Shown: positions 8,029 to 36,161 of the stretch, piece after piece | Position numbering within the stretch: position 1 is the first letter of the stretch | Layout of the letters: every line of letters starts with the position of its first letter | Assembly (NCBI GenBank): GCA_049700215.1 | Contig: JBNAVT010000002.1 | Span: forward strand, 41,981-105,980 | Source of the DNA: Thermoproteota archaeon | GTDB lineage: Archaea > Thermoproteota > EX4484-205 > JAAOZP01 | Length of the DNA stretch: 64,000 bases | Direction of reading: 5' to 3' | Translations under genes and position numbers: made by a program | Notes under the pieces: model-generated | What the model saw: the letters and a program-made list of their open reading frames with translations, nothing else | What the model was told of the DNA's origin: nothing | Database searches by the model: none

Positions 8029-9495
8029 TTAAGGTTCATGCCGATCCACAGGCTCAGAAAGCCTTTTCCAGGCCCTACGCTTCTTATACAGGACTGCCGC
8101 CGCGCACGCGGCTACAAGTATTACGGCTACCGTTAATGGTTTAACATAGTCTATCCTCCAAACAGCTTTTACTACTCTAGACTCGTCAACATAGATTTCA
8201 ACGGTTCTCTCATCCACCATCCTGTCGTTTGGGCCTAGCCCCTCGAAATGGTCGAAAACGTAGAAGCCGCAGCTCGTTACATTCATCCGTATTAGAGCGT
8301 AGGAGCCTTCGTCATACCAGCCTGCGCCGTAGGCGTTTCCATACTCCGTTTCCACACTAATATAATGTTTCTCGGAAATCAACGCGTTTAAAAGGCCTGT
8401 TCGCCACTCTCCCTTAACCGGGTCGTAGGCTCCGAAGCCTGCGCAGAACTCCCAGTAGCACCAGGCTATTCCCCTCTTCTCCGCCTCTCTCGCTACGAAA
8501 CGTGTCCATCTCACCCTTGAATCCATATCTGCTTTACTGTAGGCTCCGAACTCGCCCATTAAAAGAGGGACACCGCCGTGTTGCGCTGCCCATTGGGCAG
8601 CCATATCCAATTCTTCAGTGATCTGTTTCTTCTCCGCCTCAGTCCCGAGCCATCGCTCACCCACGGCGGGAGAGGGACTAACCCACTCCGCCCCCTGATG
8701 GGTGAATTCGAACGGGGTGTAGAAGTGGAAGGTGACGATGATATTCTCATCCTGGGGGATCACTAGACTCTTAAGATTGTAGACACTGTTCCATCCCGTA
8801 GGGCCGATGATTATTTTTCTCGTGGGGTTTGTCTTCCTTATGGTTTCAACCGTCTCCTCAACAAGCTTGTTCCACTTCTCATCAGTCAACTCCCCGTAAG
8901 GCTCGTTCAGTAATTCGAAGTAAAGAGTTTCAGGATAATTCCTGTAGTGCTCGGATATTTGCCTCCATAAGGCTATGAAGCGGTCCCTATGGCTCAAGGG
9001 GTCTTGCATTATCTCCTCATAGTGATGAATGTTTATTATGATGATAAGATGCTGTTCCAAGGACTTGTTCACAACCCAGTCCACCCTGTTGAAGAAGTCT
9101 CCGTCTATCCTATAGGGCGGATTGTTCTCAGCGTGAGCTGACCATCTTATTGGTATTCGAACAGTGTCGAAGCCCGCTTCCCTTATCACGCTGAAATACT
9201 CGTCTCTAATGTAAACCCCCCAGTCGCCCTCCCTGGGCGCTTCTAAAGCGTTCCCGATGTTTATTCCTCTGCGCATCCCGGATTCCACGACTGCTTCTTC
9301 AAACCGGTAATCGTAAGCCAGCTGCGCCTGCTCACTATCTCCCTTCATGCTTACAAAATAGAACATAATTGTAAAAAGTAAGCCGGACAATAAGATGCAT
9401 GTTTCAAGCCTCCTCTCAAGCAGAGTCATCTCTAAACTCCTCTGCTGAAAACCTTTAAAAATATTATTCTCGGATGATGAAAGATATTTTCTCAA
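8029..9495 (-). CDS. Glycoside hydrolase family 5 endoglucanase (cellulase), membrane-anchored
   Basis: 488 aa. GH5 motifs ...FELLNEPYGELTDEKW (acid/base NEP) and LLMGEFGAYSK (nucleophile GEFG). Has an N-terminal signal-anchor and a C-terminal hydrophobic segment LTVAVILVAACAAAVLYKKRR. Confidence 0.85.
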   Translation of the reverse strand: MRKYLSSSENNIFKGFQQRSLEMTLLERRLETCILLSGLLFTIMFYFVSMKGDSEQAQLAYDYRFEEAVVESGMRRGINIGNALEAPREGDWGVYIRDEYFSVIREAGFDTVRIPIRWSAHAENNPPYRIDGDFFNRVDWVVNKSLEQHLIIIINIHHYEEIMQDPLSHRDRFIALWRQISEHYRNYPETLYFELLNEPYGELTDEKWNKLVEETVETIRKTNPTRKIIIGPTGWNSVYNLKSLVIPQDENIIVTFHFYTPFEFTHQGAEWVSPSPAVGERWLGTEAEKKQITEELDMAAQWAAQHGGVPLLMGEFGAYSKADMDSRVRWTRFVAREAEKRGIAWCYWEFCAGFGAYDPVKGEWRTGLLNALISEKHYISVETEYGNAYGAGWYDEGSYALIRMNVTSCGFYVFDHFEGLGPNDRMVDERTVEIYVDESRVVKAVWRIDYVKPLTVAVILVAACAAAVLYKKRRAWKRLSEPVDRHEP

Positions 9496-10651
9496 TCCTT
9501 CCAGCGTCCGGATTAATCTTCACATTCAACTCTATCCCTTTTTCTAAATAGTATAAATTCGCGTTAAAGTACAGGCTTGTTTGATCAAAGGGATACTCCG
9601 TCATGATCATGTCTACCTCGCACCCGGATTCTATAAGCCTGCCTGTAAGCCTATTGCTGCTCAATATCTGCATGATTCTCCGCCCCAGCTCGCTCGTCGC
9701 ATTAATAATCGAAGCCCTTGCGTATATGCTTGGTGAGACCCAGATGTTTGCCGAGCTATTCTTTAAACATGCTTCGCCCATACTGTAAGTGTATCCCGGA
9801 TCATATGGGTCTTTGGATTCCACTATCGTACCCACTATAAACCCATCACCATACTTATAAATATATACACAGATTCCATCAGTCTTATTACTCTCCTCAA
9901 GGGATATCTGCAATTCTCTGAATGCGTTAGAATCGGATATAATCCTATAGGTTTTATTAAGGATTAGGCTGCATGATGTTTCAACCCCTTCAACCACCAT
10001 TTCTATCTCCACGTTTGAAGTGGTGTCCCATTCTCTTAATATTCCCAATAGTCTAATTCTTTCAATACTGTAAGTGAAACCCTCCTCCTTAAGCCATCTG
10101 ATGAAAGACTGGTTTTCCAGGATCATGGTCACCCTATTCTTAAAGTCTTCAGGCGGGTTCCTCAGCCTTGGGTAGGATAGGTTTAGAACGTTGATCGTTG
10201 CCTCTACCAGCGTGTTGTTTACAGGCAGTTTTACTTGCTCAGGTCTTCTCCTCAACTCCTTTGTGTTAAAAACATGCTCTGTCCCATTAATCATGCTCAA
10301 AATAACCACTTCTTCATGCCACTCGATTCTGAGGGTTCCCCCTATTATTGCAGTCACAAGATTTCCCCTAGCCTCGCTCCATATCCTGTTCCCCATTCTC
10401 CCGGCTATTTCAGAAGGATAATAGATTTTAACGATCAATGTTTCAAACGTGCCTTCTCCAACCGTAATCGGTATCGCCCCCTCTTCCTCAACGCCGGGAA
10501 GCATGTTGAATAGACTTGTACGGTATGTAAGAAGTATTCCTAAGCTTAAGACTATGGGTAGTATTATAATTAAAGCTAGGAGTGCTTGGGTTGACGTTAA
10601 CACTTTTTTGAGCGAAGGCCTCTCCCCCACTTTCCCTATGTTCTCTTTCAA
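9464..10651 (-). CDS. Hypothetical membrane-anchored extracellular protein, probably co-transcribed with GH5
   Basis: 395 aa. N-terminal transmembrane segment LLALIIILPIVLSLGILL and at least 8 N-glycosylation sequons (NGT, NNT, NLS, NQS, NKT, NSS, NAT). Overlaps the GH5 start by 32 nt. TATA gctttataagg ~30 nt upstream on the minus strand. Confidence 0.45.
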   Translation of the reverse strand: MKENIGKVGERPSLKKVLTSTQALLALIIILPIVLSLGILLTYRTSLFNMLPGVEEEGAIPITVGEGTFETLIVKIYYPSEIAGRMGNRIWSEARGNLVTAIIGGTLRIEWHEEVVILSMINGTEHVFNTKELRRRPEQVKLPVNNTLVEATINVLNLSYPRLRNPPEDFKNRVTMILENQSFIRWLKEEGFTYSIERIRLLGILREWDTTSNVEIEMVVEGVETSCSLILNKTYRIISDSNAFRELQISLEESNKTDGICVYIYKYGDGFIVGTIVESKDPYDPGYTYSMGEACLKNSSANIWVSPSIYARASIINATSELGRRIMQILSSNRLTGRLIESGCEVDMIMTEYPFDQTSLYFNANLYYLEKGIELNVKINPDAGRIEKISFIIRE

Positions 10652-10751
10652 AAAGATGGAAAAACCTTATAAAGCTTTTTCCTTAAACTATTTTAAGCCG
10701 CTGCTTGTCTTTTGAATAAAGCATAAGTATTTAGAATGTTTCAAGATAACC

Positions 10752-11174
10752 ATGGGGGCTGGAGGAAAACACGGTAATTTTAAGGTTGCGGTCTACTGCA
10801 CGGTCCGTGACGTGAATGAAATGGCTGATTCAACCTGGCTGGAAAACAGTTTCAAGGTTTTGAGCAGGAGCATTCCTTTAGACAAGGTTTATCTTGAGAC
10901 CTTCGGCAGCGGTGCCTTGGCGGATAGAGGCTTAATGCAGAAGGTTAAGTCTTTTTTCAAAGATAAGGGTGTCGAGGTGTCCGGGGGAATAGCCACCAAT
11001 GGTCCACGCGGCCAATCTCTCTGCTACTCGAAGCCCGGCGACAGAGAAATGCTTGAAAACGTTGTCAAGTATACTGCTGAATTGTTCGATGAGATTATCC
11101 TGGATGACTGGCTCTTCACAAGCTGCAAGTGCGAAGCATGCGCGCGCGCTAAAGCTGGACCGAGTACCGTTTGA
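10752..11174 (+). CDS. Hypothetical protein, possibly the first fragment of a disrupted larger gene
   Basis: 140-aa ORF ending ...CKCEACARAKAGPSTV*. The next two ORFs continue without an intergenic gap in other frames. Confidence 0.35.
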   Translation: MGAGGKHGNFKVAVYCTVRDVNEMADSTWLENSFKVLSRSIPLDKVYLETFGSGALADRGLMQKVKSFFKDKGVEVSGGIATNGPRGQSLCYSKPGDREMLENVVKYTAELFDEIILDDWLFTSCKCEACARAKAGPSTV

Positions 11175-11485
11175 AGACTATGGAGGATGTTGCGCAAAAC
11201 ATCATCTTTAAAACAGCCAAGGAGGTTAACCCCAAGGTTAGGCTGATAATAAAATATCCAAACTGGTATGAGCATTACCAGTTTCTCGGCTACAGTCTCG
11301 ATTTCGAATCAAGAGTCTTCGACATGGTTTACACGGGCACTGAGACGAGAGACTCAGAGTATACTCATCAACACCTTCAGGAGTATCAGAGCTACGCTAT
11401 AATGAGGTTTCTGGAGAACGTTAAGCCGGGTTTCAACGGCGGCGGCTGGATTGATCCTTTTGCCAAGAGGCGCGCGCGCTCTTGA
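11171..11485 (+). CDS. Hypothetical protein, middle fragment of a possible disrupted gene
   Basis: 104 aa, protein-like sequence (...IKYPNWYEHYQFLGYSLDFESRVFDMVYTG...). Frame differs from the flanking ORFs. Confidence 0.3.
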   Translation: MKTMEDVAQNIIFKTAKEVNPKVRLIIKYPNWYEHYQFLGYSLDFESRVFDMVYTGTETRDSEYTHQHLQEYQSYAIMRFLENVKPGFNGGGWIDPFAKRRARS

Positions 11486-12500
11486 CCGTTACGCGGAGCA
11501 GATAAGGCTGACGCTCTTCGCTAAAGCCAGGGAGGTTACGCTCTTCTGCTACAGCGCCCTGCTCGAGTCCTTTAAGCAAGATGGGGCAAGAATTCCTATA
11601 AGCATCCTTGCACCAGTAGTCGGAACCATCTTCGAGGAGATGGATTTTCTTGTCGGGAAACTCGGCAACCCTTGTGGTGTTAAAAGCTATAAGCCGTTCA
11701 ACTCGTCCGGCGAGGATTTTCTTCAAAACTACATAGGCATGCTAGGAATTCCTGTCGAGATGACTCCGAGTTTCCCCGAGGCCAGTGAAACCGTGTTCCT
11801 AACCGAGTGTGCCAAGTTTGACGGCGGGATAATGGGGAAAATCAAGAAGCATCTTGTTAAAGGCGGGGACGTTATTATTACATCCGGTTTTCTGAGGGCG
11901 ATGCAGGATGAAGTGGTTAGAGAGCTGGCTGAGGTCAAATACACCGGTGGAAAAATACTTGTCAAAGACTTCTCACTAGGCTTTTTCCTTTTCGAAGATG
12001 TTTACCACTCGGATGTGGAAATACTTATCCCCCATATCAAATACCCGACTAACGATGTTTGGGAGGTCATTACGTGTTTAAGCAGGGGCAACGGATACCC
12101 GTTGCTGATGCTCATGAACTACGGGAGGGGAACACTATACCTACTTACAATACCGGATAACTTTAACGACCTATACCATCTCCCACCCACTGTTTTGAAC
12201 AGTATTAGAAGAATCTTCTCGAAGAATTTGAAAATAAGCCTTGAAGGACCAAGCAGGGTCTGCATTTTCCTTTACGACAACGATGCTTTAATCCTTCATT
12301 CATTCCTGCCTCATCCCTCTAGAGTCAGCGTTGTGGTTAAGGGCAAGGGTTTAAAGATGCGTGAACTCTCCTCGGGCGAGATACTTAACGGCTTCGAGAG
12401 GAAATGGGGGATGGTTTTGAAAGAAGTATTGAAACCGTGTTCCCGGTTTACTTGGCGTCGTCTTCCTACAGTGCTTTCAGGGTTGAATAATTATCTTTGA
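11451..12500 (+). CDS. Hypothetical protein, C-terminal fragment of a possible disrupted gene
   Basis: 349 aa, in the same frame as 10752..11174. (GC)5 tracts sit at ~11140-11149 and ~11472-11481, near both ORF junctions. Confidence 0.4.
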   Translation: MILLPRGARALDRYAEQIRLTLFAKAREVTLFCYSALLESFKQDGARIPISILAPVVGTIFEEMDFLVGKLGNPCGVKSYKPFNSSGEDFLQNYIGMLGIPVEMTPSFPEASETVFLTECAKFDGGIMGKIKKHLVKGGDVIITSGFLRAMQDEVVRELAEVKYTGGKILVKDFSLGFFLFEDVYHSDVEILIPHIKYPTNDVWEVITCLSRGNGYPLLMLMNYGRGTLYLLTIPDNFNDLYHLPPTVLNSIRRIFSKNLKISLEGPSRVCIFLYDNDALILHSFLPHPSRVSVVVKGKGLKMRELSSGEILNGFERKWGMVLKEVLKPCSRFTWRRLPTVLSGLNNYL

Positions 12501-12536
12501 AAAGTTTAAACCAGTTTAAAACTGGAGTGTTTCAGG

Positions 12537-13139
12537 ATGAACGCGTTTAAGCAGAATGAGCGGTTGGGCAGGGGGGTTAACATACTGGGTTACGACCCGG
12601 TTTGGAAAAACAGGTCTATGGCAAGAATGAGGAGCGAGCATTTTAGGCTGATAGGGAGCGTCGGCTTCAACAGCGTACGCATCGCTCTCCACCCTTTTCG
12701 CGACGGGGCTATGGGTTGGGGAAACCGGCTTTCGGAAGAGTGGCTTGAAACATTGGAATGGGCGGTTGAACAGGCTCTTGGAAACTGGCTTATGCCGATA
12801 ATCGATTTCCACGAGTTTATAATCATGGGGAGGGATCCGTCTGGAAACAGGGATAGGCTTCTCGCCTTCTGGGATCAGATTGGTAGACTCTACAGTAATT
12901 ATCCTGACGGAGTGGTTTTCGAGCTTCTAAACGAGCCCAATAGGGAGCTTACGCCTGAGCTTTGGAACCGTCTTCTCGCCGAGATCCTTAAAACAGTGCG
13001 CAAGACTAACCCGGATAGGACTGTGATAATAGGCCCAGCCGTCTGGAACAGCATAACCGGCCTTGATAAGCTGGTTCTCCCGGAGGAAGACAGGAATATA
13101 ATTGTAGCGCGCACTCACGTTTTGGTCAAACGCCTTTAA
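12537..13139 (+). pseudogene. GH5 endoglucanase N-terminal fragment (truncated paralogue of 8029..9495)
   Basis: 200 aa. Contains FELLNEPNRELTPELW but ends at ...NIIVARTHVLVKRL*, where the intact paralogue continues NIIVTFHFYTPFEF...GEFG. No frame carries the nucleophile region. The divergence point lies on the tagcgcgcac motif at ~13104-13113. Confidence 0.65.
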
Positions 13140-13302
13140 AAATTTGGAGTAGCAACCTTGAGGAAATTATTGCTCTAAGCTTGTATGAGCACCCTCTACT
13201 TAAGGTTAAGCGCGCGCTATTTGTATTGAATGTTAATCATCTCGTCTGTATATCTAGACGAAACTTAAATTCTTGCCTCGGAAAAGGGTTTTGGGCAGGT
13301 TG

Positions 13303-15519: not shown

Positions 15520-16036
15520 TCAGTCCTCCGGCATCCTTGTTTTTCTTTCAACGGCTGCTTTAGCCAGAGTCTCACCAAGCCTCTTCAACTCAGACAAGTC
15601 TTTTTCAAACGGTGATCCTTTCTCCCTGAGCCCCCAGACAACGCCTCCAGCAGTCTTCTCCATTTTGAAAGCTGGGAAAATCCTTTCTATGCTTAACAGT
15701 GCTGAGTCGCTTGAACTGCCGCCGCATGTGAATGGCTGCCGGTTTTCCAGCAGCCTTCTCCCTTACGCTCCAGGCTCTGTCGAAGAAATCCTTCAACAAT
15801 CCCGCCATGTAGCCGAAATAGTTGGGTGAGCCGAATGCTACGGCGTTGCACGATATAAGGTCTTCAACAGTAGCGTAGTCCACGCGTTTCAGCTCAGCAG
15901 TGGCGCCTTCAACCTTCTCCACGCCTTGAGCAACCACCTTAGCTAAGGCTTCAACGTTTCCCCCTCGAGAATAGTAAAGTATTAGGACTCTAACCATGTT
16001 CCCAAGCCTCCTGCTGTAACCCTGCAATCCTAACAA
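15520..16036 (-). pseudogene. Flavodoxin-like NAD(P)H:quinone oxidoreductase (WrbA/NADPH-FMN reductase family), frameshifted
   Basis: N-terminus MVRVLILYYSRGGNVEALAKVVAQG...NAVAFGSPNYFGYMAGLLKDFFDRAWSVREKAAGKPAA, then the frame is lost. The +1 frame continues FTCGGSSSDSALLSIERIFPAFKMEKTAGGVVWGLREKGSPFEKDLSELKRLGETLAKAAVERK... to TGA at ~15520. A single extra base near 15730 explains the break. Confidence 0.6.
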
Positions 16037-16111: not shown

Positions 16112-17302
16112 TTGAAGAATTTTTTTCTCATGGAGGGCTTCCAGTTTCAATGTCCCACTAGAATCGTTTTCGGCAGGGGTGTTGAAAACCTGGTTGGGGA
16201 AGAGGTGAAGAAATACAGTGATAAGGTTCTTTTCCACTATGGTGGTGGAAGCATAAAGAGAATAGGTCTCTACGACAGGGTTGTAGAATCCTTGAAGAGT
16301 GCTGGCGTCAGGTTTATCGAGCTTCCAGGTGTTAAGCCTAATCCTCGTTTAAGCCTTGTTAGAAAGGGAATAGAGGTGTGTAGGAGTAGTGGTGTAGATT
16401 TCATACTGGCGGTTGGAGGCGGGAGCGTCATAGACTCTGCTAAAGCCATAAGCGTAGGCGTTCCCTATAGGGGTGACGTGTGGGATTTCTACGTTGACAG
16501 GGCTGAGCCAGCGGAGGCTTTGCCCGTCGGGGTAGTTTTAACTATACCTGGGGCGGGGAGTGAGGCGAGCAGCAGCTCAGTTATCACGAACGAGGAGGAT
16601 TGGCGTAAGCTTTCGCTCACAACTGAGCTCCTACGCCCCAGGTTCGCGTTGATGAATCCTGAGGTTACTTTTTCAGTACCGCCCTACTATACTGCTTGCG
16701 GAGCAGCTGATATAATGGCTCACGTCATGGAGAGGTATTTCACTAACGTGCGGCACGCGGACCTGACGGACAGGCTTTGCGAAGCAACTTTAAAAACCGT
16801 GATCAGGAATGTTCCAATAGTGTTAAGCGAGCCTGAGAACTATGATGCTCGAGCTGAAATAATGTGGGCTAGCACTGTTGCGCACAACGATCTTCTGGGG
16901 ACCGGCCGGATAGGAGACTGGGCTACGCACATGATAGAGCATGAGCTCAGCGGTCTATACGACGTGCCGCATGGCGCTGGGCTGGCCGTATTGTTTCCAA
17001 GCTGGATGAGACACGTGTATAAGCACCGCCTAGACATATTCGTGCAGTTCGCCGTTAGAGTCTGGAACGTTGAACCCGACTTCCAGGATCCTGAGAAAAC
17101 CGCGCTCGAAGGCATGGAGAGGCTGAAAGCCTTCTTCAGGCGGATAGGGCTTCCGACAACTCTAAGGGAACTCGGTGTTTGCGACGATAGGCTTGAGGAG
17201 ATGGCGCTTAGATGCACTGATTCAGGAGCCTCGAGAATAGGGAGCTTCGTGAAGCTGGGGAAGGACGATGTTCTGAGCATTCTGAGAAACGCCAGGGGAT
17301 AA
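16112..17302 (+). CDS. Iron-containing alcohol dehydrogenase (Fe-ADH family)
   Basis: 396 aa. ...ILAVGGGSVIDSAKAI... and the His-rich metal site (AHNDLLG, HMIEHELSGLYDVPHGAG) are typical of group III ADH. The true start may be the internal ATG at ~16130. Confidence 0.85.
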   Translation: MKNFFLMEGFQFQCPTRIVFGRGVENLVGEEVKKYSDKVLFHYGGGSIKRIGLYDRVVESLKSAGVRFIELPGVKPNPRLSLVRKGIEVCRSSGVDFILAVGGGSVIDSAKAISVGVPYRGDVWDFYVDRAEPAEALPVGVVLTIPGAGSEASSSSVITNEEDWRKLSLTTELLRPRFALMNPEVTFSVPPYYTACGAADIMAHVMERYFTNVRHADLTDRLCEATLKTVIRNVPIVLSEPENYDARAEIMWASTVAHNDLLGTGRIGDWATHMIEHELSGLYDVPHGAGLAVLFPSWMRHVYKHRLDIFVQFAVRVWNVEPDFQDPEKTALEGMERLKAFFRRIGLPTTLRELGVCDDRLEEMALRCTDSGASRIGSFVKLGKDDVLSILRNARG

Positions 17303-17308: not shown

Positions 17309-18544
17309 CTAACGCTTCTTCCTCAGGAGACCGTTCGCCCTATCGATGGGATCCTGATATTTTGAAACCCTCCCGTTTAGAACATCCCTGTACCTTACGG
17401 CTGCACGGAGCTTAGCGGACTCGTATATGGCTTCCGCTATTGCTTTTGCCATCATCCCGTCCTCGCCGTCAACCTCCGGCCTTCTTCTTTTCTGAACAGC
17501 CTCAAGAAAATCGTAGCACTCCAGTGTAATCCCGTCTGTAAAACCATGTGGGAAAAGCCTGTTCTTCCCCTCTTCACCTATGCTTCTGAGGAATTCTTCT
17601 CTAAGCTCAAGCATGGTGCGCTGAGTTCCATCCTTAAGAATGAGCACAGCATTGTCGAAAGGACCGTGGAAGACATCACCCGAGTCGAGAAGACACCCTT
17701 CAGACCCATAGTAAACAACCTTCGTAAAAGAGTGGCCCGGCGCAGCCATAGTCCAGCTCCATGTCCCGACGAGACCGTTTTCAAAGCTTATTAGCGCAAC
17801 CCAGCTGTCCTCCACCTCGCTGTAAAAGGTTTCCCCCTGCTTATCGTGGGGCCATTTTTCAAACTGTCCTACGAAAGCGTAAACCCTGTCCACCTCCCCG
17901 AAGAAATATCTCATCGAGTCGCAGAAATGTGCTCCACTATCCATAGCCAGGCCTCCCCCGCTCAGGTTCCTCTCGACTCTCCAATGCCACTTCTTGGGCT
18001 TCAAGGGGTCGTTCCAAGAGGCGTGAATCGCGTAGAACATTCTGGGCTTGCCGATCAGCCTGGCCTCGTTAATCAGCCAGTGCATAGTCCTCTGGTTCAA
18101 TCCGCGGCGAATGTTCTCCGCCGTCGCGACAATCCTCCCATGCTTTCTCCCAGCAGCTATTATCATCTTGCTCGCCCTCAATGATACTCCAAGGGGTTTC
18201 TCAACCATCACATCCGCCCCAGACCTGATACACTCTATTGCAACCTTATGGTGTTCAGAATGCGGCGTACATATGTCGACGGCCCTCGGCCTAGCCTTCC
18301 TCAACATTTCCCTGGTGTCGAGGAAGACAGGGGGCCTGTAGCCGAGGAGCTTCTCAGCCTCGTCCGCGAAAGATTCAACAGCCTCCTTTGAAACATCGTT
18401 TAAGGCGACAAGCCTGAGTTTCCCAGGCTCCTTCTCGCTGATCCTTGCATAAGCCATCAAGTGTTCACGGGCTATTCCTCCGCAACCAGCTATCGCGAGT
18501 TTAACCGTCCCATCTCCTACCATAGTGGCTCTCCTGCTTAACAC
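17309..18544 (-). CDS. Gfo/Idh/MocA-family oxidoreductase
   Basis: 411 aa. KLAIAGCGGIAREHL...ICTPHSEHHKVAIECIRSGADVMVEKPL matches the family. Confidence 0.8.
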   Translation of the reverse strand: MLSRRATMVGDGTVKLAIAGCGGIAREHLMAYARISEKEPGKLRLVALNDVSKEAVESFADEAEKLLGYRPPVFLDTREMLRKARPRAVDICTPHSEHHKVAIECIRSGADVMVEKPLGVSLRASKMIIAAGRKHGRIVATAENIRRGLNQRTMHWLINEARLIGKPRMFYAIHASWNDPLKPKKWHWRVERNLSGGGLAMDSGAHFCDSMRYFFGEVDRVYAFVGQFEKWPHDKQGETFYSEVEDSWVALISFENGLVGTWSWTMAAPGHSFTKVVYYGSEGCLLDSGDVFHGPFDNAVLILKDGTQRTMLELREEFLRSIGEEGKNRLFPHGFTDGITLECYDFLEAVQKRRRPEVDGEDGMMAKAIAEAIYESAKLRAAVRYRDVLNGRVSKYQDPIDRANGLLRKKR

Positions 18545-18822: not shown

Positions 18823-19224
18823 ATGAGCACGATAATGTTTAGAGAGGTGGATTCGCTCGGCAGGGAGTATGAGGAGGCTCTTAAGAATGTTGAAACCGGT
18901 AAGAACGTTAAGACCGGCGGGGCTCTCGTCACTTTTCCGGATAAGGAGAGGAAAATCTGCGAGCTTTCAGCAACCTACATGGTGAAGCTGGGAAGGTTCT
19001 CCAAGGAGCAGAGAGTAGTAGTTACTCTCACGTTTAACAAGGATAGTAATGGGGTTTACGTGGCGAACATGGATGACTCTGTGTTCCACGTGGTTCAGGA
19101 GGAGAAGGGAGGCCTGAAAGAGGTTTGGAGTGGAAGGCTTAGAGAAGCGATGGATAAACTGGGGGATGTTGCCAGGATTCACGTAAACGTGATGTCAAGC
19201 CTCTCCAGCAAGTCTTCGTCCTGA
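18823..19224 (+). CDS. Hypothetical protein
   Basis: 133-aa ORF with TATA ggctttataaaca at ~18752. No recognisable family. Confidence 0.35.
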   Translation: MSTIMFREVDSLGREYEEALKNVETGKNVKTGGALVTFPDKERKICELSATYMVKLGRFSKEQRVVVTLTFNKDSNGVYVANMDDSVFHVVQEEKGGLKEVWSGRLREAMDKLGDVARIHVNVMSSLSSKSSS

Positions 19225-23270: not shown

Positions 23271-23271
23271 A

Positions 23272-25697: not shown

Positions 25698-26683
25698 CTA
25701 TCAGCCACTCCTTTAGAGTTTTTCTGGCTGTAGAGCCAGCATTTGACTTTATGGAGTTCAGACACCTCTACTTCAGGAGGCTCCTCTCTCCTGCAAACAT
25801 TCATGGCGTGTGGGCACCTCGGGTGAAACCTGCAACCAGGTGGGGGATCAAGAAGACTCGGAGGCTCTCCTGGAATATGACCGAGCTTCTTGGTGGAGCG
25901 TAATGTAGGTACACTTGCCAAGAGTAATTTAGCATATGGGTGTAGAGGCTCGCTTAGAAAAGCTTCAAGGCTCGTTAACTCTACTATTTTTCCTGCATAC
26001 ATTATGGCGATCCTGTCAGAAAGCTCCGTGCTCAGCGCAATATCGTGCGTAATAAATATGTAGCTGATTTTAAGCTCAGACTTTATATCCTTCAATATGT
26101 TCATTATGTTCGCCTGAGTTATAACATCTAAGGCTGAAGTCGGTTCGTCGAGAATAACTATTTCTGGATGCGTTATCAAAGCCATTGCTATTAAAACCCT
26201 TTGCTGCATGCCTCCACTAAGCTCGAAAGGATACCTGTCTATAAAAGAACTGCTTATTCCGACAAGCGATAGAAGTTCCGATGCTTTTTCAATTGCGTCT
26301 TTTTCAGGAATACCTTTATGGATCATAAGTGGTTCTGCTACCTGTTCCCCTACTTTAAGCAAAGGATTTAAGGAGTCCATCGCTCCCTGAAAAACGATCG
26401 ACACTTTCTTCCATCTGATTTTTTTCTTAAAATCATCATCTCTCAGACTCATAATATCCATACCATCGATAAATATGCTTCCCTCATACTTTGCTATATT
26501 CTTTGGGAGCAACCTCATTAGGGCTCTAGCCAGAGAGCTTTTACCACATCCGGATTCTCCAACTAAAGAAACTGTTTCTCCTTTCCTAAGGTTAAAACTT
26601 ATATCATCTACAGCTTTCACTGTTCCTTTTCTAGTACTATAATATAGATAAAGCCTTTTTACCTCCATTAATGAGTCCAACAT
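25694..26683 (-). CDS. ABC transporter ATP-binding protein (OppD/DppD-like)
   Basis: 329 aa. Walker A GESGCGKSS, signature LSGGMQQRVLIAMAL, Walker B IVILDEP. Overlaps the downstream ATPase gene by 4 nt. Confidence 0.9.
   Translation of the reverse strand: MLDSLMEVKRLYLYYSTRKGTVKAVDDISFNLRKGETVSLVGESGCGKSSLARALMRLLPKNIAKYEGSIFIDGMDIMSLRDDDFKKKIRWKKVSIVFQGAMDSLNPLLKVGEQVAEPLMIHKGIPEKDAIEKASELLSLVGISSSFIDRYPFELSGGMQQRVLIAMALITHPEIVILDEPTSALDVITQANIMNILKDIKSELKISYIFITHDIALSTELSDRIAIMYAGKIVELTSLEAFLSEPLHPYAKLLLASVPTLRSTKKLGHIPGEPPSLLDPPPGCRFHPRCPHAMNVCRREEPPEVEVSELHKVKCWLYSQKNSKGVADS
25708..25875. repeat. 168-bp exact direct repeat, copy 2, encoding the C-terminus of ATPase 25694..26683
   Basis: Identical to 24703..24870. 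Flanking bases differ on both sides. Confidence 0.9.
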
Positions 26684-26735: not shown

Positions 26736-26850
26736 GAAGAGATGTATAAATGCTAAGCTTAATCTGCAATACCGTTTATACGGTTTTGCGATAGACTTAG
26801 TAGTCATGAATGTCGAGAATCCTTGTTTATTTTCTAGACGAGCTAACTTA

Positions 26851-27685
26851 GAGCATGTTTCAAAACCCCTTCTTCCTCCCATTCGCCCGCTTGTAGCATA
26901 TCAGCGCGCACGCCAAGTTCAGGAACGCCTGGTATGTACACTGCAACCTCTCGTACCTGACCTTGAGCCTCCGGTACTGGTTGATCCACGCCTGCGCCCT
27001 CTCCACAGGCCAGAGCTTCCTATACCTCCTCGGCCTCCGCCTCCTGTTCAGCAGGGGGATTATGCCCCTCTTCCTTAGTTCCCTCCTCAGCGGCTCCGAG
27101 TCGTACGCCTTGTCTCCCTTGAGCTTTAGCGGCCTTCCCACTCCATGCCTTATCGGAGGTATCGCGTCGACCAGCCTCAGGGCTACTGTAGAGTCGTGCG
27201 CGTTCGCTCCTGTAACTATTGCAGCGAGAGGGAGCCCCCTCGAGTTGGCTATGACGTGCCTCTTCGTGCCGTTCTTGGCCCTGTCCGTCGGATTGGGGCC
27301 TGTCGAGCGCCCCCTTTTAGAGCCTGCACAGGAGAGCTGTCTATCATCGCAAGCCTCATGCTTGGCTCGGCCCTATCGAGCATCTCCTTCCAGACCCTCT
27401 TCCATATGCCCTTTCGCTGCCATTCTCTAAGCCTCCTCCAGCAGCTAGGTCCGGAACTGTACTCCTTTGGGAGGGCATTCCAGGGGCAGCCGTTTAAGAG
27501 CACGTAGAGTATTCCGAGCATCGCTGTCCTGTTCGGCACAGGTGGCCTGCCGGGTGTTCCAGGGGGCTTCTGCTTCGGAAGCATGGGTTCTATTATCTCC
27601 CAAAGATCGTCCGTCAGAACCTTCTCGGGTCTAGCCATGGGGAGAGGAGGTCAGAAGGCTTGGATAAGGGTTTTGAAACACGCTC
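26851..27685 (-). mobile_element. IS5-family insertion sequence (IS427/IS1031-like), ~835 bp, with imperfect terminal inverted repeats and TTA target duplication
   Basis: Left end gagcatgtttcaaaaccc versus reverse complement of right end gagcgtgtttcaaaaccc (17/18). Flanking TTA at 26848-26850 and 27686-27688. Encodes a two-frame IS5-type transposase. Confidence 0.75.
26860..27638 (-). CDS. IS5-family DDE transposase, orfA/orfB in two frames (programmed -1 frameshift type, or inactivated)
   Basis: orfA 27249..27638 reads LTDDLWEIIEPMLP...NRTAMLGILYVLLNGCPWNALPKEY...CWRRLREWQRKGIWKRVW (DUF4096/IS5 N-terminus). orfB 26860..27141 plus upstream extension reads ...GRPLKLKGDKAYDSEPLRRELRKRGIIPLL (IS5 C-terminal DDE region). 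Confidence 0.75.
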
Positions 27686-27690
27686 TTAGT

Positions 27691-28122
27691 TTAAGTCTGC
27701 ATATAAAACTGCTCTTTAAAAAGCCTTATTTTCTTGAAACACTCTTCCTCCTCGCCGCAGTCTGCAACAAGCTTTTCAAACGGGCAGACATCGTTCTTCA
27801 TCCTGTTTAGGATTTCGGGAACAAGTTTATCATACTCGACGCTTATACTCTTCTCCTTCAAAGCGGCTAAGCCCTTCCTACTTACTACTTCCGCGTACAC
27901 TTCAGCAATATTAGCACGCCGGCAGAGCATTGCTGCTGCTCTGCCAACAACCCTGTCGGCAACAGCAGCCCCTGATAACTCTACACCATGGTTTTCAATA
28001 GCTTCAACAAGCCCCACGACGCCGTATTTCCTAGTCGCATGGATGAAAGCTCCTTGCTTAACTATAACTAGGCTGAAACCACCGTTTTTCAAAATCCTCT
28101 TAGCCGTCTCCAAGCCATTCAT
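27691..28122 (-). CDS. Hypothetical protein (possibly DUF1893-like)
   Basis: 143-aa ORF. ...DRVVGRAAAMLC... segment. The stop lies 5 bp from the IS right end. Family assignment is tentative. Confidence 0.4.
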   Translation of the reverse strand: MNGLETAKRILKNGGFSLVIVKQGAFIHATRKYGVVGLVEAIENHGVELSGAAVADRVVGRAAAMLCRRANIAEVYAEVVSRKGLAALKEKSISVEYDKLVPEILNRMKNDVCPFEKLVADCGEEEECFKKIRLFKEQFYMQT

Positions 28123-28251: not shown

Positions 28252-29397
28252 ATGAAGTATAGGCGATTCGGGAAACTGGACTGGCAGGTGTCCGCCCTAG
28301 GCTTCGGATGCATGAGGCTCCCTATAATAGGCAACGATCATTCTAAGGTTGATGAGCCTGAGGCCATCAGGATGATAAGGTACGCTATAGACCATGGTGT
28401 CAACTATGTTGACACCGCGTACCCGTATCACGGGGGGAATGGTGAGATCGTCGTCGGCAAGGCTTTAAAGGATGGCTACAGGGAGAGGATTAGGCTCGCA
28501 ACCAAGATGCCTATCTGGAATATTAATTCTAGGGAGGATATGGACAGGATCTTCGAGGAGCAGCTTAAGAAGCTTCAGACGGAATACGTGGATTTTTACC
28601 TTCTCCACGCCCTGAATAAAGACACTTGGCTTAAGATTAAAAACCTGAATGTTTTCGACTGGGCTGAAAGGGTTGTTTCCGAGGACAGGATAAAGTATCT
28701 TGGCTTCAGCTTCCACGACGACTACGAGGTTTTCAAGGAGATTATAGACGCGTATGACAAATGGACCCTTTGCCAAATACAGTATAACTATGAGAATGAG
28801 GATGTTCAAGCCGGGACAAGGGGGTTGAAATACGCTGCTGGGAAAGGGCTTGCCGTGGTTATAATGGAGCCTCTTTTAGGAGGGGCTTTAGCCAATCCGC
28901 CCCCTGCTGTTAAGCAGATCTGGGATGAGGCTGGTAAGGATCCTGTGGAGATGGCGCTGCAGTGGCTTTGGAACAAGCCTGAGGTCTCAGTGGTCCTAAG
29001 CGGCATGAGCACGATGGAGCAGGTTAAGCGAAACATTGAGTTTGCCTCAAGATCAGGTGTCGGGCTGCTTACTGACGAGGATCTTAAGCTTATAGCTAGA
29101 GTACACGTGAAGTACAGGGAGCTCCGCCCGATTCCTTGCACGAGATGCGGCTACTGCATGCCGTGTCCGAACGGCGTTGATATCCCTGAGAACTTTGAGG
29201 TTTACAATCATGGTGTAGCGTATAGCACGATTGGCGCAGCCCGATGGATTTACAACAATAATATTCCTGCTGAGAGGCGGGCGAGCGCATGCGTGGGATG
29301 CAGGACCTGCGAGGAGAAGTGTCCCCAGAAGATTAAGATCAGCGAATGGATGCAGAGGATCGATAAGGAATTAAGATTCCAGCCGCCTGGAACGTGA
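28252..29397 (+). CDS. Aldo/keto reductase fused to C-terminal 4Fe-4S ferredoxin-type domain
   Basis: AKR N-terminus MKYRRFGKLDWQVSALGFGCMRL...NYVDTAYPYHGG. C-terminal CTRCGYCMPCPNG...CVGCRTCEEKCP gives two Cys clusters. The start was set at the internal ATG at 28252. Confidence 0.8.
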   Translation: MKYRRFGKLDWQVSALGFGCMRLPIIGNDHSKVDEPEAIRMIRYAIDHGVNYVDTAYPYHGGNGEIVVGKALKDGYRERIRLATKMPIWNINSREDMDRIFEEQLKKLQTEYVDFYLLHALNKDTWLKIKNLNVFDWAERVVSEDRIKYLGFSFHDDYEVFKEIIDAYDKWTLCQIQYNYENEDVQAGTRGLKYAAGKGLAVVIMEPLLGGALANPPPAVKQIWDEAGKDPVEMALQWLWNKPEVSVVLSGMSTMEQVKRNIEFASRSGVGLLTDEDLKLIARVHVKYRELRPIPCTRCGYCMPCPNGVDIPENFEVYNHGVAYSTIGAARWIYNNNIPAERRASACVGCRTCEEKCPQKIKISEWMQRIDKELRFQPPGT

Positions 29398-29464: not shown

Positions 29465-32340
29465 ATGTATAGGGATGAGGCGGTGGTTTGGAGTCCCGGG
29501 GATTCTGAGAAAATTGCTGGTTTTCTGAGGCGCGTATCCCCAGGTTTCACCGAGAACGCTCAGGCCAGGGCCTGGGTTGAACCTGACGGCAGGATCCTTC
29601 TTCAAATAGTGTTCATGAAAGAGGGTGTTGCAACCAGGATGCTTGAAACATTTGTCGTTAAGGATGATGGTGGGAACATCGTCAGGGTTGAGCCTCCTGA
29701 GGCGACTGGTGAAGCGGGGGAGAGCCAGCTGGAAGGCGGTTCCCAGAATCCCTGTTTAAAAACCCTTGGGGATCGCCTCAGGGTTCTCAACTGGCATCAT
29801 AGTAATTCTCTGGCTGCTGTTGCTAAGAGGCTGGTGGGCCTCGAGGTTTTTTCCACACTTCCTTCTAAAGAGGTTGACTGGGCGAGCAGTGTTTTCAACC
29901 AGGTTTTCCCCGAGTCCCCTTTAACCCTCAGGCCCTACGGGTATTTTGATAAGGAGACGAGAGAGTACGTTATAACTCGGCCAGACACGCCTACGCCCTG
30001 GATAAACTATCTCGGCCAAGGAGGCTACGGCGGAATAATATCTAACACTGCTGGAGGTTTCTCGTTCGACCGTGACCCCCGTAACCGTCGGGTTACAAGG
30101 TACCGGTACAACGCTATTCCACTGGATCAGCCTGGGCACTATATTTATCTTAGGGATGATGAAACCGGGGAGTTCTGGAGTCCAACTTGGCAGCCTGTTA
30201 AGAACAGCCTTGAATGGTATGAGTGTAGGCATGGCGCAGGCTATACTCGTATAAGCAGCAGGCGTAACGGGGTTGAGGCCTCAATACTCTTCTTCATCCC
30301 ACCTAATCCCCCCTACGGGGAGTGTCCTGTCGAGCTTCATGTGCTACGCTTAAAAAACACTAGCGCCAGCGTTAAGAGCCTGAGCATATGGTCCTACGAG
30401 GAGCTGTCATACTGGGATGCTATCGTTGACACGACTAACCTGGATTGAGGTCAGCAAATAGTTTCAAGCTCCTACAGGAATGGTGTTATTGTCACGGGGG
30501 TTCAGTTTAAACCTACTAGAACGTTCCTCGCAAGCAGCCTCGCCCCAGATGGTTACGACACTAGCCGCGAGGTTTTCGTGGGGAGCTACGGCGACCTCTC
30601 CAGGCCGCAGGCGGTTGTCAGCGGCAAGCCGGGTTACAGTATTGCTTCACGCGGCAACAGTATTGCTTCCCTCAGACATTTTCTGGAGCTGAAGCCCCGG
30701 GAGGAGGAGACAATAGTCTACGTGCTTGGCGTGACTGATAAGCCGAGTCTAATACCTGAAACCGTTGAACACTATAGTGTCGTAGAAAACGTTGAGAAGG
30801 CTTTTAAAGAGCTTGGAGAAAACTGGGGCGAATACCTTGGGAAGCTAACTGTTGAAACACCGGATGAGGAGATGAACGCTATGATAAACTTCTGGAACGC
30901 TGTTCAGTGCTGTGCCAACCTCTACTGGTCTAGATTCGTCTCCCTGTACGATACTGGTTTAGGAAGAGGCATGGGGACGCGTGACTCTGCTCAAGACACT
31001 TTGGGCACTGTGCATAATGATCCTCAGCATGCACGCAGGGTTCTGAAAATGCTCTGGAAACTACAGTTTAAAGATGGGCACACCTGGCACCAGGTTTTCC
31101 CGCTTACTGGCGAGGGGGGGCCTGGGCATGCTGCAGAATCTCCTGAGAAACCCCAGTGGTTTAGCGACGACCACCTTTGGCTCATCTTAGCGACCTGCAG
31201 CTATCTCCGTGAAACGGGTGACTTCACACTCCTGGATGAGAAGCTGCCATACCAGGATAGTGACGCGGAGGAGACTGTTTGGGAACACGTAGAGAGGGCG
31301 GTAGGCTTCACCTGCAGGAAAAGAGGATTACACGGCCTGCCGCTGATCGGCTTCGCAGACTGGGATGACACTATGAATCTTGACCATGGTTCTGAGAAGG
31401 CTGAAAGCGTCTGGACGGGGATGCTTTTCTGCAGGGTTATGCTTGACCTTGCGGAGCTTTGCAAGAAGCTTGGGCGCGTGGAGAAGATGATGGAGTTTGA
31501 AAAGCTTCACAGGGAGATGGCTGAAACAATAAACCGGGTTTCATGGGATGGTGAATGGTATGCTAGGGCTTACGACGACGAGGGCAGGCCTGTCGGCATT
31601 AAGGGTAAGAAGTATCACTGGATAAGTCTTATTCCGCAGGCTTGGTCGGCTATTGCTGAGCTCGGCGAAGAAGAGAGGTCGAGGAAAGCCTTGGAGAGTG
31701 CACGCCGGTTTTTAAACAGCCTTTAGGATTAAGGCTGATGAGAGACCCGTTTAACAGCAGTAAGACGGATGAGGATTCAGTGGATGTTGAGAGCCTGAGG
31801 CGTTTCGGCGGAACAGCAACATACCCGCCTGGGCTCAAGGAGAATGGTGGAATATTCAACCATGCTAACACTTGGGTTATTGTTGCAGCCGCCAAGCTCG
31901 GGCTTGGAGACCTCGCCTACCAGTTTTACAGCCAGATAATGCCGCTTAGACGTAGAGATACGGATGCTCTTAAGACTGAGCCCTACGTGTATTCTCAGAA
32001 TCTGGCTGCCCCGGAGCATCCTGAGTATGGGCGTGCAAGAAACTCGTGGCTCACCGGCACAGCCTCATGGGTTTACGTGGCTGCGACACAATGGATTCTC
32101 GGCATACGCCCCACCTTCGAAGGGTTGAAAATATCTCCATGCATACCGGAATCCTGGAGCGGCTTCAAGGCTCGAAGGGTCTTCAGAGGAGTGACGTACA
32201 ATATTCTCGTTAAACGTGTTGGAAAGGGTAACAAGGTTTCGCTCAAGGTGAATAGTAAGCATGTTCCCGGAGAAGTTGTTCCGCTTCCAATCGAGGATGT
32301 GGCGAGCGTGGAAGTAGAGGTCGCGCTCGGAGGGCAATAG
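29465..32340 (+). pseudogene. GH94 cellobiose/cellodextrin phosphorylase, disrupted by one in-frame TGA (~30446) and one frameshift (~31720)
   Basis: Three ORFs cover the N-terminal domain (RPYGYFDKETREYVITRPDTPTPWINYLG), the catalytic (alpha/alpha)6 region (GRGMGTRDSAQDTLG) and the C-terminal domain (NGGIFNHANTWVI...). ORF1 and ORF2 are in the same frame and separated by TGA (...TTNLD*GQQIV...). ORF2 to ORF3 needs a 1-nt correction near aacagcc/tttagg. Confidence 0.75.
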
Positions 32341-33503: not shown

Positions 33504-33506
33504 CCG

Positions 33507-34907: not shown

Positions 34908-35075
34908 AGCTATGCCCCATCCTAATATATAGGGGGATACTTATACATTTCCTCTCTGCTTGCAGCAATCGTTTCCCGCCAATAAGGATCCGGCTCAGCG
35001 AAACCCCTCTCGCCGCTTAAAAAGCCCCTTATGCAAGGCTGATTAAGCGGTCGTAGCAATCGTTTTATAGTTCCT

Positions 35076-36161
35076 GTGGCATTAAACCTATGGATGCAAA
35101 AACCGGATTCAAGGATGGCTCTAACGCTAGCAATACTTATTATAATTCTCTACGTAAGCCTGCTTATGGTGCAACGGACTGGGAGAAGAGTGTCACAGGG
35201 AAACTCAAGCAGCATCGAGGAGTATTTCAAAACAGTTCCCCTTGAGAAACTGGAGGTTAAGTTCTTCGGATGGGTTACGCCGGACGGTGAAAGCATCAAC
35301 AGTTTTCTGGCTAACGCTGAAAAGTTCACCTGGGTTTCTCCAACAGGCTCGATAGTCAATGAACACGGGGTTTTCACCCCTAGAGTGGACAGTAGGGTTG
35401 TCGAGGCTGCTAGAAGGAGTAACGTAAGTATTGTTCCGCTTGTAGCAAACTCAGGCTTCGACAGGAGCTTGGCTCACAGAATCCTTGCGGATCCTGAGGT
35501 TAGAAGACGCACGATAGAAGACATAGTCAGCTTCGTTGTTGAGAACAATTTTTCAGGGATCAACATTGATTACGAGAACATTCCTCCTGAGGATAGGAGT
35601 GCGTTAAACTCGTACATGAGGGAGCTGGCTTCAATCCTACACTCCCACGGGAAGATTGTTACTATAGATGTCTCGGGCAAAACTTGGGACGATGCCTCCG
35701 GTTGGGGTGGCGCATGGGACTACAGGGCTCTAGGCGAGGCCTGTGACTACGTCTGCATAATGTGTTATGATTATCATTGGTCTGGGAGCGAAGCGGGCCC
35801 CATAGGACCCTTAGGCTGGCTCAGGGAAGTCGTTGAATATGCTCTTTCAACAATACCGAGGGAGAAGATAGTAATCGGTATTCCCTTCTACGGTTACAGG
35901 TGGCTCGGGAGAAACGGTGTTGGCCTAACTTTTAAACAGGCGTTGGAGACGGCCAGGAGCGTTGATACGGAGGTTTTTTTCAGCGAGGAGGATGCTGAAT
36001 ACCACTATTCTTACGGCTCATACGAAGTATGGTTCCAGGGTGCGAAGTCGGTGGAGCTAAAGGCTTCCGCAGTGCTTTCACACGGGATAGATAAGATAGC
36101 TGCCTGGAGAGTTGGGCAAGAGGATCCGAGGGTCTGGGAGGTTATAAGCAGGAAGCCTTAA
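35076..36161 (+). CDS. Glycoside hydrolase family 18-like protein (chitinase-like TIM barrel), membrane-anchored
   Basis: 361 aa. N-terminal transmembrane segment. FSGINIDYENIPPED carries the GH18 catalytic DxDxE motif, and aromatic MCYDYHW is typical of GH18. Confidence 0.65.
   Translation: MALNLWMQKPDSRMALTLAILIIILYVSLLMVQRTGRRVSQGNSSSIEEYFKTVPLEKLEVKFFGWVTPDGESINSFLANAEKFTWVSPTGSIVNEHGVFTPRVDSRVVEAARRSNVSIVPLVANSGFDRSLAHRILADPEVRRRTIEDIVSFVVENNFSGINIDYENIPPEDRSALNSYMRELASILHSHGKIVTIDVSGKTWDDASGWGGAWDYRALGEACDYVCIMCYDYHWSGSEAGPIGPLGWLREVVEYALSTIPREKIVIGIPFYGYRWLGRNGVGLTFKQALETARSVDTEVFFSEEDAEYHYSYGSYEVWFQGAKSVELKASAVLSHGIDKIAAWRVGQEDPRVWEVISRKP

Follow-up and report, generated by a model that had tools for sequence, protein, structure and literature searches.

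A probable beta-glucan utilisation cluster with broken intracellular enzymes in a Thermoproteota archaeon

We analysed a 64,000-nt stretch of DNA (hereafter the window) from a Thermoproteota archaeon, positions 41,981 to 105,980 of contig JBNAVT010000002.1 in assembly GCA_049700215.1. A preliminary description made from the sequence alone had outlined a beta-glucan utilisation island at 8029–36161 of the window. This region holds two genes of glycoside hydrolase family 5 (GH5), a gene in three pieces between them, a family-5 ATP-binding cassette (ABC) importer, a GH94 phosphorylase gene and a GH18 gene (Table 1). All large open reading frames (ORFs) from 7 to 39 kb of the window were scanned with Pfam, and profile and structure searches supported the assignments to GH5, GH94, GH18 and the family-5 substrate-binding proteins. 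NCBIfam did not yield informative names for the proteins of the cluster, Pfam scans of the region found no domains of SusC/SusD, the Bacteroidota-type polysaccharide utilisation locus, and Rfam and tRNA scans found no RNA genes in the window.

Proteins with exactly the same sequence as those of the window were found in ERZ3623746 (ENA), in the metagenome-assembled genome (MAG) GCA_964543825.1 (NCBI) and in Logan assemblies of SRR6344962, with DNA identities of 99.4–100% to the window. The closest species-level genomes were 'Candidatus Brockarchaeota archaeon DRTY-6.bins.80' and other hot-spring MAGs labelled Thermoproteota or 'Nitrososphaerota', with ~86% amino acid (aa) identity, and we take the source of the window to be a Brockarchaeota-like archaeon. 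Related genomic loci are given here as L-numbers and homologous proteins as P-numbers. L010/L011 are from a Brockarchaeota MAG, L020 is the GTDB representative SKW236, and L005 has 95% DNA identity to the window. P0001 is a full-length GH94 orthologue, P0121 an orthologue of the three-piece gene (87% identical), and P0247 a homologue of the substrate-binding protein.

Table 1 Features of the region and their positions in the window
Feature	Position	Strand	Remark
Intact GH5 endoglucanase, extracellular (predicted)	8029..9429	-	466-aa gene call (as in L013); longest ORF reaches 9495
Partner protein, 395 aa, membrane-anchored (predicted), upstream of GH5	9464..10651	-	no known domain
GH42-fold glycosidase pseudogene, three ORFs	10752..12500	+	frames 0/2/0; Pfam PF28584 GH_cat / PF27250 / PF28585 (precomputed)
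Lesion J1	11143..11151	+	19 nt of native TTGAAGCCAAGGrTGATAG replaced by CGCGCGCTA, net -10 nt
Lesion J2	11471..11478	+	one native A replaced by CGCGCGCG, net +7 nt
Truncated cytoplasmic GH5	12537..13139	+	PF00150 positions 5-190 of 272; NEP acid/base motif kept
Non-homologous filler, ~190 nt	13107..13297		replaces GH5 3' end and downstream; GCGCGC at 13107, (GC)4 at 13210
Alpha/beta-hydrolase, esterase-like, 578 aa	13303..15039	-	Pfam Hydrolase_4, PETase, DLH and others
FMN-reductase/flavodoxin-like, shortened	15605..16036	-	143 aa against 164-168 aa in L010/L011
Iron-containing alcohol dehydrogenase (Fe-ADH)	16112..17302	+	Pfam; conserved cluster neighbour
GFO/IDH/MocA sugar-type oxidoreductase	17309..18544	-	in L006, L013, L016; absent in L010
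Conserved 133-aa protein	18823..19224	+	position kept in L006, L010; no family match
Left boundary of ABC module, three alternating-GC tracts	19226..19466		TTAGCGCGCG at 19226 and 19306; CTAGCGCGCGCGCTAA at 19454
Family-5 substrate-binding protein, 876 aa	19524..22154	+	SBP_bac_5
Two ABC permeases	22164..24693	+	BPD_transp_1
Two ABC ATPases with oligo_HPY C-terminal domains	24696..26683	-	Pfam
IS5-family insertion sequence, ~840 bp	26850..27690	-	inverted ends TTTCAAAACCC; DUF4096 gene call
TM1506/DUF1893 protein	27691..28122	-	conserved GH94 neighbour
Aldo-keto reductase fused to 4Fe-4S dicluster domain (AKR-Fer4)	28252..29397	+	conserved, directly upstream of GH94; ORF scanned from 28177
GH94 cellobiose-phosphorylase pseudogene, three pieces	29465..32340	+	would encode 957 aa
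GH18, YdhD/YaaH/SleL type, membrane-anchored (predicted)	35076..36161	+	PF00704 E 8e-26

The first GH5 gene is intact and matched PF00150 over profile positions 17–269 of 272 (E = 1.7e-54, 185.6 bits against a cut-off of 23.5). Its best solved relative was Thermotoga maritima Cel5A (3amc, E = 1.4e-113). The similarity to this enzyme and to Fervidobacterium nodosum Cel5A (E = 1e-113 and 3e-101, respectively) covers the whole catalytic domain and both catalytic glutamate motifs, with LLNEP (NEP) and MGEFG (GEFG) aligning with the corresponding T. maritima Cel5A segments. We take the acid/base glutamate of GH5 enzymes to lie in the NEP motif and the nucleophile near the end of the barrel, and the two Cel5A enzymes presumably belong to GH5 subfamily 25. 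Compared with them, the window enzyme adds a predicted N-terminal signal anchor, a ~70-aa extension behind the GH5 domain and a predicted C-terminal membrane anchor, and it is paired with a membrane protein that is predicted to be glycosylated. The full PF00150 match and the hydrophobic segments at both ends (residues 30–51 and 450–472) agree with the membrane-anchored GH5 of the preliminary description.

The partner protein, for which Pfam and NCBIfam gave no match, has an N-terminal hydrophobic (membrane) segment and eight N-x-S/T sequons against 3.4 expected, as anticipated for the sequon-rich extracellular protein proposed earlier. It is kept beside the GH5 in L007 and L013. A CE15-like esterase occupies its position in L010, and the possibility that the two are homologues was ruled out, as they share no homology. 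With the 466-aa call for the GH5, the two genes lie on the same strand with a gap of 35 nt, which fits their co-transcription.

The three-piece gene, left without a name in the preliminary description, can now be read as a broken GH42-fold glycosidase and thus as a third inactivated gene of the locus. Its intact orthologues are single genes of 572–578 aa (76–87% identity), and without its two lesions the window gene would give a 574-aa protein, which has thousands of full-length archaeal and bacterial homologues, GH5 fusions among them. The 578-aa orthologue in L010/L011 has the Pfam domains GH_cat/SSO3021_2nd/GH_C; a literature search for SSO3021 gave nothing relevant. Neither the local Pfam and NCBIfam libraries nor a search of PDB sequences yielded a match for the gene or its orthologue, and only the fold search succeeded. 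With the AlphaFold model of P0121 as query (predicted local distance difference test, pLDDT, 90; predicted TM-score, pTM, 0.90), the top Foldseek hit was the GH42 beta-galactosidase Gan42B (4oif; E = 1e-21, TMq 0.65, ~10% identity). The match extended over all three domains of this fold, a TIM barrel, a Rossmann-like middle domain and a beta-sandwich. In contrast to true GH42 proteins, the window family has no match to the Pfam GH42 model, has its own recent Pfam entries, and is tied to GH5 by neighbourhood and fusion, so that the fold alone is held in common. We read the gene as having coded for a cytoplasmic exo-glycosidase that was GH42-like, of a separate family, and probably acted on the products of GH5 enzymes.

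Of the two lesions in this gene, J1, defined by alignment with L007, L015, L016, L017 and L020, removes part of a conserved Cys-rich segment and is identical in L013 and L014. The tract at J2 is one GC unit (two bases) shorter in strain L013 than in the window. The second GH5 gene, already described as truncated, was found to have lost a catalytic residue. It has 72% identity to residues 1–190 of the intact 310-aa gene of L010, ends after 'NIIV', and lacks the last ~120 aa of this orthologue, including the nucleophile (LGEFG segment). Its homology to the orthologues stops at 13105–13115, inside TAGCGCGCAC. We regard this gene as truly inactivated.

The GH94 gene carries both defects that the preliminary description had reported, an in-frame TGA at 30446–30448, where L006 reads TGG, and the loss of 1 nt between 31718 and 31719, which leaves an ACG/ACT Thr codon one base short and puts the downstream piece in the -1 frame. 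The supersandwich and catalytic domains are present but split by these two lesions, leaving no uninterrupted polypeptide, and the gene appears to be truly inactivated. The closest intact homologues have 957 aa and 85% identity over 100% of the length, which indicates that the N-terminal extension of ~155 aa (29465–29930) is real and conserved. This extension had no match in Pfam, is conserved in the archaeal clade, and is absent from the bacterial homologues of ~800 aa. P0001 matched the cellobiose phosphorylase of C. thermocellum with E = 7e-190 and chitobiose phosphorylase with E = 1e-141; the central piece of the window gene, a shorter query, matched cellodextrin phosphorylase with 2e-11 and laminaribiose phosphorylase with 2e-8. 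Judged by these similarities, the GH94 would be nearest to the cellobiose phosphorylases among the four types. The alignment of P0001 with the C. thermocellum enzyme (3qde) covers 800 residues, including the GLPLIG-ADW-D segment; the archaeal proteins differ from it in their N-terminal extension and the window copy in being a pseudogene. With L010 as the outgroup, the nonsynonymous/synonymous changes in GH94 numbered 16/61 for the window and 18/51 for the branch of the intact L006 gene, and neighbouring genes had similar ratios. Since the broken gene does not differ from its intact sister in this ratio, the inactivation of GH94 is recent.

The same genes recur in the same order in relatives. 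In L010/L011, the order is GH5 (452 aa), CE15-like esterase, the 578-aa GH42-fold gene, GH5 (310 aa), FMN reductase, Fe-ADH, the 133-aa gene, TM1506, AKR-Fer4, intact GH94 (957 aa), deoxyhypusine synthase, and a pyridoxal phosphate (PLP) enzyme fused to PadR. L006 has the ABC module and an intact GH94, followed by GH18 and the downstream genes as in the window, and in L007, L015 and L016 the GH42-fold gene (572–575 aa) and the second GH5 are both intact. This shared order indicates that GH5, the GH42-fold gene, the second GH5 and, further on, GH94 form a conserved cluster. The Brockarchaeota are uncultured archaea that were proposed, from MAG annotation, to degrade plant polymers in hot springs (PMC8065059). 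We interpret 8029–32340 as a local version of a conserved Brockarchaeota-like cluster for beta-1,4-glucan, possibly also mannan, in which the intracellular enzymes have recently been inactivated, and we give this interpretation a probability of roughly 0.78.

In the pathway so proposed, the membrane-tethered GH5 endoglucanase and its glycosylated partner would cut the polymer outside the cell, and oligosaccharides would then be imported, in some lineages by the Opp-type ABC system inserted in the cluster. Inside the cell, the GH42-fold exo-glycosidase, the signal-less GH5 and the GH94 cellobiose phosphorylase would complete the breakdown. The present genome would have lost this intracellular trio and kept the secreted GH5, its partner and the importer, amid general gene decay and cassette turnover. 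The data show the family identities, the synteny, and the lesions with their reproducibility and recency; the substrates, the cellular locations and the direction of flux are our inference. The sequence of depolymerisation, import and phosphorolysis put forward in the preliminary description matches the synteny conserved in relatives, except that the ABC importer is not part of the core.

A comparable system is the seven-gene cellodextrin cluster of Ruminiclostridium cellulolyticum. The two have in common the products of extracellular cellulases, an ABC importer and intracellular phosphorolysis by GH94 (PMC5663094). In contrast to that cluster, the importer in the window is Opp-type (family 5) and not a fixed member, a GH42-fold gene and a cytoplasmic GH5 are added, the GH94 has its ~155-aa N-terminal extension, and three intracellular genes are dead.

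Several observations weigh against our interpretation. TmCel5A-type (T. maritima Cel5A-type) GH5 enzymes also cleave mannans, and the label 'beta-glucan' is perhaps too narrow for this reason. The 133-aa protein, TM1506, AKR-Fer4 and Fe-ADH are conserved in the cluster without a place in the scheme. L006 and L016 share the ABC module with the window, but L010 and L015 lack it at the equivalent position, which marks it as a variable insert, not a core member, and the best solved relative of its binding protein is a peptide-bound OppA (7fi3). The absence of relaxed selection in GH94 fits a very recent loss and would equally fit continued use of the gene by recoding. Finally, genes without a link to sugars are also broken just upstream of the island: a DegT/DnrJ/EryC1 aminotransferase gene (5711–7046) is split by a G6-to-G7 run and an Amidohydro_2 gene (4441–4620, around 4500) by small indels, both being intact in L007. 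The decay may therefore carry nothing specific to sugar metabolism.

The lesions themselves were reproducible, turning up in two or three independent assemblies. The GH94 frameshift was seen in ERZ3623746 and GCA_964543825.1, and L003/L004, which carry it, differ from the window by 26 single-nucleotide polymorphisms (SNPs) in 4.3 kb. A TGA-terminated 327-aa GH94 product is on record in the Logan assembly of SRR6344962, and the first break of the GH42-fold gene is also present in ERZ3623746 and SRR6344962. The lesions are real and not errors of one assembly. It is hardly credible that they reflect sequencing or assembly errors in low-coverage bins, with the genes intact in the organism: although the contigs with these sequences have only 4–5x coverage, and the G7 run in the DegT gene is a classic type of error site, the lesions are shared across pipelines and runs (ENA SPAdes, NCBI MAG, Logan) and by strains that differ from the window by SNPs. 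Moreover, J1, J2 and the GH5 truncation replace many bases, unlike homopolymer slips.

Recoding of GH94 deserves separate consideration. A slippery heptamer, T_TTA_AAC, lies at 31711–31717, in register and 7 nt before the 0-frame stop of the second GH94 piece. A -1 frameshift is known in archaea from the fucA1 alpha-fucosidase of Saccharolobus solfataricus. GH94 could thus be expressed by near-cognate Trp readthrough of the TGA and a -1 frameshift at the heptamer, whose X_XXY_YYZ register and shifted product FLNQPLGL, which keeps the length and alignment of FLNTPLGL in the intact orthologues, speak for such a mechanism, as does the unrelaxed selection. However, the heptamer is ancestral coding sequence (FLN): L005 contains it as well with its gene in frame, and L006 and the top homologues all keep the frame here. 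Recoding would have to occur twice, independently, L005 has deleted 580 bp of GH94, and both neighbouring sugar genes are broken irreparably. We consider recoding very improbable and infer that the genes are non-functional.

Sister lineages have independent lesions in the same genes. In L005, GH94 has no frameshift at 31718, and 580 bp (window 29940–30519) are gone, with CGCGCGCGCTA in their place. In L020, 1.39 kb (the equivalent of 11907–13297) are gone, with GCGCGCGC in their place; this removes the second GH5 completely and the GH42-fold gene in its 3' third. The intracellular arm is thus being lost repeatedly, by separate events. The secreted GH5 and its partner are kept in every lineage with such lesions, and only the three cytoplasmic enzymes of the pathway are hit in the window, where the secreted GH5, the partner and the importer are intact. 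The preliminary description, which is right in outline, took the inactivated phosphorylase and cellulase as signs of a locus in flux; both are truly inactivated, but with the DegT and amidohydrolase genes also split, the decay is not specific to the locus. A mutator lineage arising through loss of NucS was ruled out, as NucS is intact at 49062–49853. We also observed that two independent short-read assemblies break within GH94, L001/L002 ending at window position 30295 and L003/L004 beginning at 30857, around the region deleted in L005, which hints at mixed alleles in the sampled population.

The loss of the intracellular half with retention of the secreted enzyme in at least three close lineages means that presence or absence of carbohydrate-active enzymes in MAGs is no proof of capability. 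The pattern of loss may reflect a changed use of the released sugars. The locus would define a conserved cellulose-type cluster of the Brockarchaeota, which includes an uncharacterised GH5-tied GH42-fold family and an N-terminally extended GH94. As a whole it is a variant of a well-known system, and its interest lies in the repeated, recent and selective loss, in two uncharacterised components (the GH42-fold family and a permuted binding protein), and in the CG-filled junctions described below.

The family-5 ABC importer is complete as previously described, with an 876-aa SBP_bac_5 protein, two permeases and two oligo_HPY ATPases. The binding protein has a circularly permuted binding core along with an Ig-like domain and a coiled coil; it starts with a signal peptide and is predicted to be anchored in the membrane at its C-terminus. 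Residues 41–275 matched positions 148–360 of the SBP_bac_5 profile, and residues ~485–695 matched positions 28–149. Similarly, residues 443–686 aligned with 68–307 of the Thermococcus kodakarensis OppA chain (7fi3) and residues 105–263 with 399–568. The halves are swapped relative to both references, which indicates a circular permutation, and since ~300 homologues of 860–910 aa from many archaeal groups (P0241–P0360 among them) align over nearly the full length, the permuted form appears to be a family trait. Significant sequence and fold similarity and the Opp-type permeases and ATPases connect the system to 7fi3 and other cluster-C/family-5 binders, from which the window protein differs in its swapped halves, its 876-aa length, the Ig-like domain, the coiled coil and the membrane anchor.

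It is conceivable, though in our view unlikely, that the ABC system imports peptides and is in the cluster by accident, leaving the island without a dedicated importer. The OppA 7fi3 structure carries a bound pentapeptide, the sole NCBIfam match of the binding protein was DppA, far under the cut-off, and the module is an indel between close relatives that is flanked by GC tracts and an insertion sequence (IS). On the other hand, the identity to OppA is low and limited to two segments. In Foldseek searches with the structure model (pLDDT 88.6), only 300–390 columns aligned to any canonical binder, and peptide, nickel, chitin and mannobiose binders scored alike. Neither sequence nor fold places the protein with the sugar binders or with the peptide binders. 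Its homologue P0247 (41% identical) is encoded beside GH38, GH127 and a GFO oxidoreductase, and the module itself sits within the glycan cluster and adjoins a GFO oxidoreductase. Opp-type cellobiose binders are established in Pyrococcus furiosus and Thermotoga. Sugar specificity of the binding protein is plausible from this gene context.

Homology of the window with L006, L015 and L016 breaks at 19226 and 19468, at the left boundary of the ABC module. On its other side, the IS5-family element between the ABC ATPase genes and TM1506 is absent in L006; its transposase is in pieces, possibly the normal two-ORF arrangement. The two ATPase genes share a stretch of 168 bp (24703–24870 and 25707–25874) with 100% identity, which suggests gene conversion. 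In L006, only one ATPase gene was called at the position of these two.

Alternating CG filler was found exactly at five lesions in three lineages, namely J1, J2, the GH5 truncation, the L005 deletion and the L020 deletion. The native sequence replaced ranged from 1 bp to 1.4 kb, and relatives with intact genes had no such tracts at these sites. One explanation would be phase variation: as contingency repeats, the tracts would switch the GH42-fold gene on and off by dinucleotide slippage. The one-unit difference at J2 between strains would be expected from slippage, and gain or loss of GC units could in principle restore the frame at each site. But J1 also removes 19 nt of the conserved Cys-rich segment, no assembly contained an in-frame allele, and like tracts occur at the 580-bp and 1.39-kb deletions, which cannot revert. 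We regard phase variation as extremely unlikely.

The distribution of the tracts in the window was uneven. GCGCGCGC occurred 12 times (9 loci) against 0.57 expected. The 20 loci with GCGCGC, a 6-bp palindrome, were all located in 11.1–15.5 kb, 19.2–20.3 kb, the IS element or 57.5–63.4 kb, while the remaining ~48 kb, the conserved part of the window, had none (~7.6 expected, an estimate from the shuffle mean). This pattern, with 0 in the conserved ~48 kb and 20 in variable zones, resembles restriction-site avoidance in a core genome. In 38 of 50 flanks, the base adjoining the tract was A (left) or T (right), often as TA, and no conserved flank of greater length was found. Seven of the 20 GCGCGC loci had a homology breakpoint or an indel of at least 5 nt no more than ~25 nt away, against 7.2% of all bases (binomial P = 3e-4, in a post hoc test designed with the data already seen). 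An earlier and cruder test, which compared GC tracts only with the ends of BLAST high-scoring segment pairs, did not reach significance (986 of 5000 random sets equalled the observed one); significance came after indels of at least 5 nt and all GCGCGC loci had been added.

Similar tracts also bound gene cassettes. At 58.8–63.4 kb, and in L036, L037, L047 and L050, they enclose single genes or pairs that differ between related genomes, including a DUF234 ATPase, an HTH protein, a HEPN-nucleotidyltransferase pair, PIN-MazE pairs and AAA_14/DUF4143 ATPases. The palindromes that bound these cassettes in the window (58795–63380) have the form A(GC)4-5T and are often flanked by TA. Three tract-bounded stretches at 58802–59880 contain no ORF of at least 60 aa. 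Adjacent to these, at 56114–58820, an MttB-family methyltransferase gene (491 aa) has as its neighbour a 359-aa ORF without a Pfam match, which has a (GC)4 tract among its first codons; the homology to L036 ends exactly there. L046 is without the entire 54.7–60.0 kb block.

Candidate sources of the tracts were examined. The IS5-like element was rejected, as its ends (TTTCAAAACCC) differ. An integron-like array would be expected to have an IntI integrase and attC sites of 60–140 bp; no integrase was found in the genes scanned (parts of contigs), and the boundary motif is only 10–12 bp without conserved flanks. Viral contigs scanned for TAGCGCGCGCGCTA gave 38 scattered single matches, which we judged uninformative. 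The literature searched contained no description of CG-filled junctions in archaea. Filler DNA or N-nucleotide addition at end joining and restriction-site-linked rearrangement may be compared with the tracts; the likeness lies in deletions with short non-templated junction inserts and in the absence of the palindrome GCGCGC from the conserved part of the window. Compared with end-joining filler, the inserts here are always alternating CG of 6–11 nt, often followed by TA, are found in three lineages, and also bound cassettes.

We tentatively suggest, as an idea that we hold to be somewhat less likely than its opposite, that the CG runs mark a so-far undescribed, lineage-specific process of break repair or cassette recombination, with the decay of the cluster as its visible product. 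Breaks might be sealed with self-complementary (CG)n filler, both ends being extended by CG tails that pair at high temperature; alternatively, recombination or cleavage might take place at a palindrome of the A(GC)4-5T or GCGCGC type. Such a process would yield gene-killing replacements and deletions of 1 bp to 1.4 kb as well as the exchange of toxin-antitoxin, ATPase and perhaps ABC cassettes. If general, CG-filled junctions would be a readable mark of DNA deletion and acquisition in these genomes.

Among the neighbouring genes, the alpha/beta-hydrolase behind the truncated GH5 has a predicted N-terminal anchor, and the C-terminal domain fused to it is predicted to cross the membrane about five times. 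It is present in the close clade and not in L010; the L013 copy is split by a 1-nt deletion at 14553, and the window copy is intact. The stretch at 15100–15500 is non-homologous, with GCGCGC at 15211 and 15461, and the FMN-reductase-like gene next to it is possibly a remnant.

GH94 is followed by genes for deoxyhypusine synthase and the PLP enzyme fused to PadR, which are outside the pathway, and then by GH18. The preliminary description had counted a GH18-like hydrolase among the members of the island. Its family assignment is supported, whereas its place in the pathway is not, because its relatives are of the YdhD/YaaH type, housekeeping genes lie between it and GH94, and it is absent from the L010 cluster. 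The best solved relatives were YdhD, YaaH and a cortical-lytic enzyme (E = 2e-40 to 2e-31), not chitinases. The protein has an N-terminal membrane segment, and its motif GINIDYE, compared with DxxDxDxE, keeps the Glu and not the upstream Asp residues.

Downstream of the island, a conserved trio of LuxE-like, LuxC-like acyl-reductase and NAD-epimerase genes (37905–41620) is also found in L005 and L006. An Orc1/Cdc6 gene at 46054–47169 may indicate a nearby replication origin.

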